DNA of 64,000 nucleotides from Candidatus Thorarchaeota archaeon (GTDB lineage: Archaea; Asgardarchaeota; Thorarchaeia; Thorarchaeales; Thorarchaeaceae): positions 160,001 through 224,000 of the forward strand of contig JAFGAR010000081.1 in the NCBI GenBank assembly GCA_016933575.1, read 5' to 3'. Made by a program: the position numbers and the translations under genes. Below the pieces are notes generated by a model that saw only the letters and a list, made by a program, of their open reading frames with translations, ran no database searches and was not told the DNA's origin. Below, one piece after another: positions 44,853 to 50,988 of the stretch (positions within the stretch are counted from its first letter, which is position 1; every line of letters starts with the position of its first letter).

Positions 44853-45830
44853 TTGGACCGCATCCGTAGTACTGATGATAAGAAGGGAGCTGCCGAATCT
44901 TCCATTGAACTAATTTGTTGCCCAGAGTGTAAGTCTACTACCGTAGTTGAGGATACCACTCGAGGTGAACGAGTGTGCGGCGGTTGTGGTCTTGTACTAT
45001 CCGACCATCGTATTGATACCGGAGCCGAATGGCGTGCATTCAGTACTGAAGAGAGTGACTCTCGAAGTAGAGTTGGAGCACCACTTCGCTATACCGTGCA
45101 TGATAAGGGACTCTCAACAGTTATTGACTGGAGAGATCGGGACACCTCTGGGAAGAAGTTGAGTCCGACACGAAGGTCGGAGATCTATCGATTGCGTAAA
45201 TGGCAGATACGGTCTAGAGTACATTCGAGCATGGATCGTAATCTTGCACAGGCTATGTCCGAACTCGAACGATTGTCCTCACAGCTTGGAATCCCTGAAC
45301 CAATTCGTGAGCTTGCAGCACTTCTCTACAGAAAATCTATCATCAAGAAACTAGTCCGTGGACGAAGTATTGAAGCTATGGTGGCAGCAACGCTCTATGC
45401 TGCATGCAGGATACGGGAAAAACCCCGTCCTCTTGACGAGGTTGCTGATGCTTCGCGTATCGATAGAAAGAAATTGGGACAGTGTTATCGACTTCTTCTA
45501 AGAAATCTAGCAATCAAGATCCCACTCTCTAATCCAGTCGCTTACATCTCCCGTTTTGCATCACAACTCGAACTCTCGAGCCCTGTGCAGCTCCGGACCG
45601 TTGAGATTTTGCAAAGAAGTCGCGATATTGGTCTCACAATAGGTCGTGACCCGCTTGGTCTTGCAGCGGCAGCAATTTACGTCGCCTCTATCATGTTAGA
45701 TGAACGCCGGACACAACGAGAGATTGCTGAGGTCGCAAGGGTCACTGAAGTCACAGTACGCAATCGCTACAAAGAGATCGTAAAGAAGCTCAGTATTGAT
45801 TCCATGGGTCTTGAACCTATAGAACACTGA
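44853..45830 (+). CDS. tfb: Transcription initiation factor IIB
   Basis: CPEC..VCGGCG zinc ribbon, EWRAF, RVGAP, HDKGLST, two cyclin repeats, TEVTVRNRYKE. Confidence 0.97.
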   Translation: MDRIRSTDDKKGAAESSIELICCPECKSTTVVEDTTRGERVCGGCGLVLSDHRIDTGAEWRAFSTEESDSRSRVGAPLRYTVHDKGLSTVIDWRDRDTSGKKLSPTRRSEIYRLRKWQIRSRVHSSMDRNLAQAMSELERLSSQLGIPEPIRELAALLYRKSIIKKLVRGRSIEAMVAATLYAACRIREKPRPLDEVADASRIDRKKLGQCYRLLLRNLAIKIPLSNPVAYISRFASQLELSSPVQLRTVEILQRSRDIGLTIGRDPLGLAAAAIYVASIMLDERRTQREIAEVARVTEVTVRNRYKEIVKKLSIDSMGLEPIEH

Positions 45831-45886
45831 TCTCTCGCTCACTCTACCTGCAATAGTACTAACATGTGTTGAGGATTGGTTATATG

Positions 45887-46102
45887 CTACCTTCTTCCAG
45901 TCTGTTGGAATGACCAATCGACCTGAACCATTTGTTCTGGGAATCCAAGCTTTGACAAGACGTCTCCAATGACCCCTCTATGATCTCCTTGCAGTTCAAT
46001 ATGGCCATGTTTTGCGGCTCCTCCGCAAGCAAGCTTGGCTTTCAGTTTTGTAGCCAAATCACCAAGGTCAATATTCTTGTCAAAACCTTCAAGAATTATG
46101 TT
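45887..46102 (-). pseudogene. Start-less 3' fragment of aIF1/SUI1 (displaced or duplicated C-terminal 70 codons)
   Basis: Reads NIILEGFDKNIDLGDLATKLKAKLACGGAAKHGHIELQGDHRGVIGDVLSKLGFPEQMVQVDWSFQQTGRR*; 58/69 aa identical to the intact gene at 48905-49249. Confidence 0.93.
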
Positions 46103-48791: not shown

Positions 48792-48904
48792 GGGCCACGA
48801 TTTTTGTCCACCCCTCCTAGTCCCCCGACCTCCACCCCCACCACTCCCCTTTTTCCTTTTTTGTTTCTAAGCATGTATAATTGAAACACGTTCTCGAATT
48901 GATT

Positions 48905-49249
48905 CTATCTTCTTCCAGTCTGCTGGAATGACCAATCTATGTTGATTGCTTCTTTTGGAAATCCGAGTTTTTCCAGAACTTCTCCTATATTTGCCCTATG
49001 GTCTCCCTGCAGCTCGATATGACCGTGTTTTGCAGCTCCTCCACAGGCAAGCTTGGCTTTCAACTTCGTGGCAAGGTCGTTTAGATCGATATTTTTATCG
49101 AAGCCTTCTAAGATCAAAGTCAAACGACCCCATTTACGGCGCTCGACAGTCACATTAATTCTTGCCTCTTCCTGAGCGATTGTTTCGCACACACAGAGAT
49201 CCTGAGGCAAACCACAATTCGGGCAGATTCCGCCTTCGTCGTTACTCAC
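48905..49249 (-). CDS. sui1: Translation initiation factor aIF1 (SUI1/eIF1 homolog), GTG start
   Basis: CPNCGLP.DLCVCE N-terminus, RRKWGR, LKAKLACGG, IELQGDH. Confidence 0.96.
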   Translation of the reverse strand: MSNDEGGICPNCGLPQDLCVCETIAQEEARINVTVERRKWGRLTLILEGFDKNIDLNDLATKLKAKLACGGAAKHGHIELQGDHRANIGEVLEKLGFPKEAINIDWSFQQTGRR

Positions 49250-49395
49250 GCATTTATGTACTCCTGAGATTTAGTTATAGCAATATGCTAAGGGAAGAGA
49301 GCCCTCTCGTACATATAAGTTATGCTTTACCCTATCAAAATAAAAAAGATGCGTAAAAGAGCAAGAATTAAGCGGAAAAACAGACCCAAGAAACT

Positions 49396-50988
49396 ATGAT
49401 GTCCGACTCTGTACTCATCATCGATGCATTAAGCGCTGGGTCTGGGAAACGAACCAGTTCTAGGGATTCTATCGGTTGTGGACCCAGAAGCGTAGCAGGG
49501 ATTTTTGAGAAGCATGGATTTGACTGCAGAATCTATAGGGCTGAAGAGATTCTTGAGAAAAAGAGTATAATGAGAAAGTTCGATCACATTGCTATCAGCT
49601 CTATGACCATGGACATGCCAGCTACTAGGAAGATCATGAACCTGTGGCGGAGCGGGGCTCGACATTCTGGTAGAGCTATTATTGGAGGTCCTATCGCTTC
49701 AGATTCTCGGGTGATTATAAAATTAGGTGCAGATCTCCTCGTTATTGGTGAAGGTGAGGCTACACTCGAGGAGTTGATTGAGCGGGACTATTTCCATGAG
49801 AAGATCGAGTTGTTGGACGTTCTTGGAATTGCTTTTGCAATCAATGGAAGAGTAGCATATACAAGGCCTCGTGAATTCATATCATCAGAATCTCTCTCAT
49901 CTGATTTTCTACCATCCACCACACGAATACTTGACTACAAGGCGTATCAAGCAAGTAAGGTCTATGTGGAGGTAACTCGGGGTTGCTCCAATTTTAGAAG
50001 GACTCGACTTCCCCTGTTAAATGGAAGTCAATGTTCTGAATGTGGAAATTGCGATGCTGACGAACCCGAAACACGTTTAGATTGCCCAGAAGATATTCCG
50101 CCTGGTTGTGGATTCTGTAGCGTTCCCGGAACGTGGGGCCCTCCAAGAAGCAGGTCTGCAGTGAGTATTGTGAGAGAGATCAAAGAACTTCTGGACTTAG
50201 GGGTCCATAAAATTGTCCTCGAGTCTCCTGGTTTCCTAGACTACTTCCGTGGATCCGAACCCCTCACAGATCCCTGTCATCCACCAGCTAATCTGTCTGC
50301 TATCAAGGATTTACTAGGGCAGATCAATAATCTGCCTCAAGTGATTGATGGAACTGCTCACATTACCATTGAGAACATGAAAGCGTGCCTGTTTACTGAT
50401 GAGGTTGCACAGATGTTAGTTGAGTCAATGATGTCGAGTTCTCCAAATATTGGTCTTGAGACCGGTTCTGAAAAGCACATGCATCAGATCGGTAAATGTG
50501 GAAATCCGCAGGATGTCCTTTCTGCTGTGAAAATTGCGAGTAAGTATGGAATGAAACCCTTTGTGTATTTCATCTATGGTCTCCCTGGAGAGGATGAAGA
50601 CAGTGTGAACGATTCTATTACCATGATGCGGCAAATCAGTGAGGCTGGAGCTGAGAGAATAATTCTGTATGGCTTTAGATCCTTGCCTGGGTCTGCCTTT
50701 GAGAACTACCCCTCCTCCTCAACCAGTAATCCACTTGGGGCTATACTCAGGAGGGAAGCTGATAGAATCAATCGAGTGAAGAAGGATGACTACATCGGAA
50801 AGATTGTTCGTGGTATTGCAGCTGAACAATCCTGGGTCAATAGAGGATACACCATGGTCTATCCCTTGGAAGAAGGTCCCCTCATGACAGTGCCTGGCGG
50901 CTTTTCTGCAGGAACACTCCTGAACATTCGAATAACCAAGGTTCTTAGTAGCGGCCTCCTTGAGGGAGTGGCCCTTCAATCATCCTAA
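49396..50988 (+). CDS. B12-binding-domain radical SAM protein with split Cys motif and C-terminal TRAM-like domain
   Basis: IIGGPIA, VIGEGE, VEVTRGC...GCGFC, GLETGS, FIYGLPGE. Confidence 0.85.
   Translation: MMSDSVLIIDALSAGSGKRTSSRDSIGCGPRSVAGIFEKHGFDCRIYRAEEILEKKSIMRKFDHIAISSMTMDMPATRKIMNLWRSGARHSGRAIIGGPIASDSRVIIKLGADLLVIGEGEATLEELIERDYFHEKIELLDVLGIAFAINGRVAYTRPREFISSESLSSDFLPSTTRILDYKAYQASKVYVEVTRGCSNFRRTRLPLLNGSQCSECGNCDADEPETRLDCPEDIPPGCGFCSVPGTWGPPRSRSAVSIVREIKELLDLGVHKIVLESPGFLDYFRGSEPLTDPCHPPANLSAIKDLLGQINNLPQVIDGTAHITIENMKACLFTDEVAQMLVESMMSSSPNIGLETGSEKHMHQIGKCGNPQDVLSAVKIASKYGMKPFVYFIYGLPGEDEDSVNDSITMMRQISEAGAERIILYGFRSLPGSAFENYPSSSTSNPLGAILRREADRINRVKKDDYIGKIVRGIAAEQSWVNRGYTMVYPLEEGPLMTVPGGFSAGTLLNIRITKVLSSGLLEGVALQSS

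Follow-up and report, generated by a model that had tools for sequence, protein, structure and literature searches.

The gene for the initiation factor aIF1 in this Thorarchaeota genome begins with GTG, and an ATG in another frame stands 4 nt before it, behind the same Shine-Dalgarno (SD) sequence. The question raised by this locus is whether such an arrangement, at the gene of a factor that itself proofreads start codons, serves to regulate the synthesis of that factor and, if so, which of the two codons would be responsible. The locus was analyzed within a stretch of 64,000 nucleotides (contig positions 160001-224000), hereafter the window, of a metagenome-assembled genome (MAG) of 3.47 Mb. 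In public records, the named relatives of this aIF1 gene come from MAGs of Candidatus Thorarchaeota. Our best overall reading, to which we give a probability of about one half, is that aIF1 is initiated at GUG, that this conserved weak start would serve a self-limiting feedback, and that the neighboring AUG is incidental.

The aIF1 gene and its start site

On the minus strand the site reads AGGAG (49265-49261), tacataa, ATG (49253-49251), a single C (49250), GTG (49249-49247), AGT AAC. The features of the locus are as follows:

48905-49249, minus strand: aIF1 (SUI1) coding sequence, 114 codons plus the stop codon TAG (48907-48905); PF01253, with an N-terminal CxxC...CxC zinc knuckle
49247-49249, minus strand: aIF1 start codon GTG, 11 nt from the SD; orthologs have GTG, CTG or ATT at the homologous codon
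49261-49265, minus strand: SD sequence AGGAG, found 8-12 nt before the start in essentially all orthologs of the order
49271-49273, minus strand: in-frame TAA, the upstream limit of the aIF1 frame
49242-49253, minus strand: out-of-frame mini-ORF ATG CGT GAG TAA (M-R-E-stop), beginning 7 nt after the SD and ending with a stop that overlaps aIF1 codons 2-3

Residues 28-98 of the product of 49249-48905 form a SUI1 domain (Pfam PF01253, E = 1.2e-16) with a score of 61.4 bits (curated cut-off 25.5), and the zinc-knuckle cysteines C9, C12, C19 and C21 of the product are invariant in an alignment of 21 aIF1 sequences. It is the only intact copy of aIF1 (SUI1) in this genome. The codons that lead from the upstream TAA to GTG are ATC TCA GGA GTA CAT AAA TGC, none of which is ATG, GTG or TTG, while the next canonical codon downstream of GTG 49249 is a TTG at codon 14, use of which loses two of the four zinc-knuckle cysteines. 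Because the frame is closed upstream by a TAA without an intervening canonical start, and the downstream alternative would halve the zinc knuckle, GTG 49249 is identified as the start of aIF1. In addition, an in-frame stop is found 0-2 codons before the homologous start in 22 of 80 orthologs. Ser occupies the second codon in 76 of the 80, with AGY in 54 and TCN in 22, and since Ser is kept through two unrelated codon families, the aIF1 frame is translated from the called start onward.

We are highly confident of this anatomy and of the start site at GTG 49249. An earlier sequence-only reading of the window had named the gene as aIF1, with which the match to the SUI1 domain (PF01253, E 1.2e-16) agrees, and had argued that translation must begin at GTG 49249, which is indeed the only possible canonical start upstream of the zinc knuckle. 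The overlapping mini-ORF that it described is present at 49253-49242, out of frame with aIF1, and the spacings that it gave are both correct, with AGGAG separated by 7 nt from the ATG and by 11 nt from the GTG.

The frame relation between the two codons depends on the C at 49250; if that base were spurious, the true start would be ATG-GTG-AGT. Such an error is conceivable in a MAG of 215 contigs that is 85.5% complete and carries 6.9% contamination. However, a contig produced by another assembler (Logan) from the probable source sample matches across the site and is identical over 49047-49700 at a depth of 13, its independence being partial, as the sample is the same. Moreover, orthologs share the arrangement of the frames (e.g. 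ATGcGTG at locus L014), most of them reading 'gcGTG', and about 80 assemblies of related species, made independently, show the same frame relation together with a GTG, CTG or ATT start. The check for a one-base indel at 49250 that had been proposed for the locus thus came out in favor of the C, which is retained in the contig of the second assembler and agrees with the frames of the orthologs. A sequencing error is ruled out by these two lines of evidence, and we regard the chance of an artefact as negligible.

Upstream region and neighboring genes

The region upstream of aIF1 contains a further feature:

49313-49318, minus strand: putative TATA box, TTATAT, in the conserved block CTTATATG (49319-49312); distance to the start codon about 66 nt

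The CTTATATG block is the best conserved part of the upstream alignment (28 sequences, 17 genera) and is a probable TATA box of a leadered transcript. At a distance of about 66 nt from the start codon, it would give rise to a leadered mRNA whose 5' UTR measures roughly 40 nt. A search for conserved RNA structure at the SD and start returned no consensus pairs (RNAalifold, 28 sequences), and the aIF1 leader of this genome folds no better than shuffled sequences (z = 0.41). A B12-binding radical SAM gene (PF02310 and PF04055; 49396-50988, plus strand) is divergent from aIF1 and lies 146 nt from its start, so that the short intergenic region must hold the promoters of both genes.

The 3' side of the locus has been rearranged. 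A 3,018-bp insertion lies inside aIF1, with a 207-nt direct repeat whose arms (45884-46090 and 48902-49108) are 73% identical. One of these arms is a remnant of the native gene:

45884-46090, minus strand: displaced native aIF1 3' fragment, approximately the last 70 codons, without a start and preceded by an in-frame TAA; arm of the 207-nt repeat

The displaced copy shows 75% nucleotide identity to orthologs of the genus, against 69% for the 3' portion of the intact gene, the orthologs being 77% identical to each other. It lies 57 nt from the 3' end of the TFB gene, in the same placement as the intact aIF1 of relatives, about 70 of which have the two 3' ends 30-120 nt apart. The insertion has the appearance of an integrated element with aIF1 as its target, which supplied a replacement 3' end, and the portion of the intact gene beyond about 49108 toward the 3' end, which belongs to the repeat, looks imported. 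The long branch of this aIF1 in the gene tree can be attributed to the insertion and the replaced 3' end. The three ORFs of the insertion (374, 257 and 235 aa) had no match in Pfam or PHROGs, and no recognizable integrase was found among them. The TFB (TFIIB) gene itself (44853-45830, plus strand) is convergent with aIF1 and starts with TTG, as do 24 of 28 orthologs, with GTG in three.

The aIF1 start codon within the order

The aIF1 loci were taken from 82 of the 87 genomes of the order, i.e., from every genome having one, and represent 17 genera and two families; 80 of them were usable. The homologous start position was defined by its distance to the first Cys, which follows 6-8 codons later, and to AGGAG, which precedes it by 8-12 nt. 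At this position the 80 orthologs from 17 genera have GTG in 61 cases, CTG in 18 and ATT in one, and none has a clear ATG. In two of the three genomes of one genus an in-frame ATG does occur 14 codons upstream; the SD there precedes the CTG instead. According to a gene tree that was built without the start codon, the start state changed four times, with GTG and CTG interchanged two or three times and ATT arising once, and CTG in the order may trace to only 2-3 events. No change to ATG or TTG was found on this tree. A non-AUG start is, by these alignments, a fixed trait of aIF1 throughout the order, in the form of GUG or, in some genera, of the weaker CUG or AUU. The single ATT case (L079, genome G075) belongs to a genus that otherwise has GTG; its ATT stands 11 nt behind AAGGAG, and no in-frame canonical codon is available.

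Start codons of aIF1 across Asgard and other archaea

The Asgard archaea are the closest known relatives of eukaryotes. Starts of aIF1 were sampled in 31 families of the phylum, and in about half of these they are non-AUG, with ATA, ATT and CTG among the codons used:

ATG: about ten Asgard families
GTG: families f2, f10 and f31, and part of f5
TTG: families f22 and f25
CTG: family f4
ATA: families f8, f15, f23 and f24
ATT: family f9, the largest
ATA, ATT and TTG mixed: family f14

Each of the non-canonical codons stands 8-13 nt behind an SD, and a canonical in-frame codon is absent in each case. The Lokiarchaeal family, which contains a closed genome of 4.36 Mb, uses TTG. Among the 72 named aIF1 genes sampled from non-Asgard archaea, approximately 60 start with ATG, and the exceptions are TTG in Methanomethylicia-like genomes, ATA in one Aenigmatarchaeota and CTG in one Hadarchaeota. 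Since the great majority of these genes have ATG, the non-AUG trait is lineage-specific and not intrinsic to the gene sequence. Likewise, any feedback based on the aIF1 codon would not be universal, because ATG is found in many Asgard families and in most other archaea. An apparent tendency of ATG lineages to have weaker SDs (3.6 against 4.8 matched bases) was rejected, given that an SD had been a requirement for calling a non-canonical start and that the Thorarchaeota genera are not independent.

Start codons of other genes

The initiation factor aIF1A, the partner of aIF1, was treated by the same procedure. Within the order all 30 loci begin with TTG. A further 23 loci, which represent 12 other families, begin with ATG, GTG or TTG only, TTG or GTG being the start in seven of these families; none of the 53 loci examined had a non-canonical aIF1A start. 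Since aIF1A is always canonical, the start-calling procedure does not manufacture non-canonical starts. The aIF1A gene of this genome lies outside the window (contig C7:37128), and a TTG preceded by GGAGGA is shared by the 30 genomes of the order that were sampled; the beginning TTG CCT AAA AAA is found in several other Asgard families.

Besides aIF1, only one credible CTG start was found among about 170 ortholog pairs in 390 kb of the CTG-type genome G042, where the remaining apparent CTG starts are internal codons of longer ORFs. The single candidate encodes a 361-aa protein whose ortholog in genome G000 (contig C140, C140:88471-89556) starts with GTG. Its CTG is homologous to that GTG and SD-led, no in-frame canonical start is present, and the protein gives only a sub-threshold HTH match. 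One sporadic CTG start was also detected in a neighbor cluster. Otherwise, the alignment-based comparison of neighbor clusters found TTG in 24 of 28 TFB loci and in 26 of 29 loci of another neighbor, and ATG in 28 of 28 loci of a KH-domain protein, while just one cluster was mixed. A cruder estimate of start turnover between G000 and the 390 kb of G042 (from non-ATG to ATG in about half of 24 usable pairs) was discarded because the caller over-picks internal codons; the start codons of the alignment-based clusters are much more stable than that estimate.

In this genome, SD-led starts are ATG in 54-57%, TTG in 27-29% and GTG in 16-17% of cases according to a crude SD-based caller. Regarding the other initiation factors, aIF2 beta, aIF2 alpha and aIF5B start with ATG, aIF2 gamma with GTG and aIF1A with TTG. 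The start codons of the initiation factors are in the background proportion, with no pattern beyond aIF1 and aIF1A.

These observations bear on a rival reading, namely that the GUG of aIF1 is a plain start codon kept by inertia, that the CTG, ATT and ATA of its relatives represent drift tolerated where little product is needed, and that the upstream ATG is due to chance. Consistent with this, about 43-46% of the SD-led genes of this genome begin with TTG or GTG, control genes also hold TTG across the order, sporadic non-canonical starts do occur elsewhere (the CTG of the neighbor cluster and the CTG candidate of G042), and an upstream ATG has a base rate of 11-19%. GUG alone is weak evidence, because GTG and TTG starts are common here and control genes keep TTG order-wide. 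Similarly, the absence of ATG from 80 related genomes does not single out aIF1 by itself, since starts are generally stable in the order. The sequence-only reading had itself cautioned that GTG and TTG starts are common, and it was right to do so: they account for about 43% of the starts of this genome, and aIF1A, TFB and another neighbor keep TTG.

However, CTG, ATT or ATA is found at aIF1 in at least eight Asgard families and in seven genera of the order, compared with 0 of 53 aIF1A loci and about one of 170 other pairs. Furthermore, every change at aIF1 within the order has led to a weaker codon and never to ATG, and the gene affected is that of the start-codon proofreading factor itself. 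As far as the start calls go, what sets aIF1 apart is the recurrence of near-cognate codons that are almost unused by other genes. A plain start codon kept by inertia stands as a serious contender, against which we incline, and a conserved weak start that limits its own factor is the reading that we prefer.

The upstream out-of-frame ATG

The sequence-only reading had placed the regulation in the upstream ATG. According to that proposal, the AUG competes with GUG for the SD-bound 30S subunit, and when aIF1 is abundant the M-R-E mini-ORF is translated instead of aIF1. At first sight the arrangement suits this role, as the AUG is present, overlaps the start and has the SD within reach. In addition, its frequency in the genus exceeds the base rate of the genome, and it has arisen at three positions.

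The distribution of this ATG was considered across the 80 orthologs. Sixteen of them have an out-of-frame ATG in the spacer that separates SD and start, namely 14 of the 25 from the genus of the window and one each from two other genera; none of the 53 genomes of the 13 remaining genera carries it. The ATG lies at -7 in 11 genomes, at -8 in three and at -4 in two, the last including this genome, and falls in two frames, opening ORFs of 2 to 37 codons. The gene tree implies at least nine gains or losses within the genus, and at -4, -7 and -8 alike a single substitution in the spacer consensus would create an ATG. As the species are related, the 14 carriers of the genus are not 14 independent events. 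Genome-wide, an out-of-frame ATG between SD and start was counted in 145 of 1304 SD-led genes (11%) and in 19% of GTG genes.

The spacing of AGGAG to the start in this genome offers a further line of evidence. It is 8 nt in 63 genes, 9 nt in 73 (the peak), 10 nt in 35 and 11 nt in 37, while 7 nt is found in 16 genes, 4-5 times more rarely than 8-9 nt, and 4 nt or less in about six, which is the background level. In most carriers the ATG is at -7 or -8, which leaves only 3-4 nt to the SD, a spacing at background level. Judging from these counts, the GTG is well placed at 11 nt, the position of the ATG of this genome, at 7 nt, is marginal, and for most relatives the ATG, at 3-4 nt, would be unreachable. 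The assumption that a spacing of 7 nt would win over one of 11 nt is not borne out, since the former is rare and the latter common among the AGGAG spacings of this genome.

Taken as a regulatory element, the decoy would have to be dispensable in the 64 of 80 orthologs that lack it, 13 whole genera included, and tolerant of changes in position, frame and ORF length, of repeated gain and loss, and of spacings that are rare or at background level. Moreover, a three-codon ORF that ends 2 nt past the GUG could as well feed re-initiation, with the opposite effect. We therefore consider competition between AUG and GUG improbable. The comparison of sui1 5' regions that had been proposed, for conserved non-AUG starts and overlapping out-of-frame AUGs, gave only the former: no ortholog of the order clearly starts with ATG (0/80), and the overlapping out-of-frame AUG is confined to 16 of 80. 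The decoy mechanism built on it is not supported, as the ATG occupies three positions and two frames, has been gained or lost at least nine times and is mostly too near the SD. The upstream ATG is labile and probably neutral. Most likely, it arises incidentally, and for a short evolutionary time, from an A/T-rich spacer in which a single mutation suffices to create an ATG, and at most it could be a minor, genus-specific modulator, a role that these data do not support.

The same data bear on another explanation, in which translation starts at the AUG and a programmed +1 shift at GAG-TAA leads into the aIF1 frame. The aIF1 frame is indeed +1 relative to the ATG, with a stop after three codons as in the RF2 shift site, and the aIF1/SUI1 gene of S. 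solfataricus P2 has been described as 'interrupted', with a -1 programmed frameshift proposed as a possibility (Cobucci-Ponzano et al., 2010, as cited in PMC8211752). However, the upstream ATG is missing from 64 of the 80 orthologs, some carriers would need a +1 and others a -1 shift, and one of the ORFs is just M-T-stop. A slippery sequence is also absent, as tRNA-Glu on GAG cannot re-pair on AGU, and an SD-positioned GTG, CTG or ATT accounts for every genome without recoding. Programmed frameshifting from the ATG is rejected on account of the rarity of the ATG, the opposite shift directions and the missing slippery motif, and we rate it as very improbable. Initiation at the near-cognate codon itself remains our preferred reading.

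A proposed self-limiting start and its relation to known systems

The aIF1 protein destabilizes initiation complexes at non-AUG codons; the Sulfolobus factor rejects AUU, and the Pyrococcus factor proofreads (PMC4705826, PMC6237735). Because of this activity on non-AUG codons, self-limitation is the likeliest function of a weak start on the aIF1 gene. In the mechanism that we propose, a leadered aIF1 mRNA would be made from the conserved TATA box described above, and aIF1 would be translated from GUG 49249, set by the AGGAG 11 nt upstream. The weak start would cap aIF1 synthesis, and output would fall when aIF1 is abundant, which would constitute a negative translational feedback. The conserved non-AUG start of aIF1 fits what feedback of the infC or eIF1 type would predict, and such a feedback through the aIF1 codon seems plausible to us, at somewhat less than even odds.

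GUG is an ordinary archaeal start codon, and Sussman, Simons and Simons reportedly found in 1996 that bacterial IF3 does not discriminate against it. By analogy, since IF3 is said to accept this codon, the GUG of the present gene may escape sensing by aIF1. It may thus represent the mildest case, in which sensing is perhaps absent. On a broader scale, Asgard aIF1 may repress its own translation through a near-cognate start (GUG here; CUG, AUU, AUA or UUG elsewhere), in an archaeal counterpart, and possible forerunner, of eIF1 autoregulation to which the recurrent AUG of the genus would add a second, competitive layer. We put this wider proposal forward tentatively, and would sooner bet against it than for it.

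In bacteria (IF3) and eukaryotes (eIF1), start-codon stringency is set by a fidelity factor that throttles its own synthesis through a poor start. This kind of system is known, and its archaeal aIF1 version is new to the searchable literature, in which we found no description of non-AUG starts or autoregulation of archaeal aIF1. The conserved non-AUG start of aIF1 would make such a loop testable with existing archaeal toeprinting, and the answer would tell whether control of this kind is older than the eukaryotes. The findings also matter for annotation, since callers limited to ATG, GTG and TTG truncate or miss aIF1 in the lineages with CTG, ATT or ATA.

Regarding known systems, the bacterial gene infC for IF3 is said to have an AUU start and to be under negative translational autoregulation, as reportedly shown by Butler, Springer and Grunberg-Manago in 1987. 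The starts that IF3 rejects are AUU, AUC, AUA and CUG. Like infC, the aIF1 gene encodes a start-codon-rejecting factor and itself starts, after a good SD, with a conserved non-AUG codon, and relatives of this aIF1 use AUU, AUA and CUG, which fall in the class that IF3 discriminates. On the other hand, aIF1 has an unrelated fold, the codon here is GUG, which IF3 accepts, and the archaeal feedback is a proposal. The aIF1 trait is also lineage-specific (Asgard and a few others), whereas the infC start is near-universal.

The aIF1 gene of S. solfataricus P2 resembles the present one in that the 5' end of an archaeal aIF1 misfits a simple ATG-initiated ORF. However, recoding has been invoked there, while in Thorarchaeota a near-cognate start behind an SD suffices and the upstream ATG is usually absent. 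Regulatory upstream ORFs that sense stringency are known from eIF5 and BZW1/2 and are conserved in position and context (PMC5823381). They share with the aIF1 mini-ORF the form of a short out-of-frame ORF that overlaps the main start of a start-selection gene, and they differ from it in their conservation, as the mini-ORF is found in 16 of 80 genomes, at three positions and in two frames. Finally, the mRNA of eukaryotic eIF1 has its AUG in a poor Kozak context, by which the factor autoregulates (Ivanov et al., 2010, PMC2964218, as cited in PMC6237735). In aIF1 the weakness would lie in the codon itself and not in its context, the mRNA is SD-led and not scanned, and the case is made from sequence; nevertheless, the two factors are SUI1 orthologs, and in both a suboptimal initiation site is found on the mRNA of the stringency factor.
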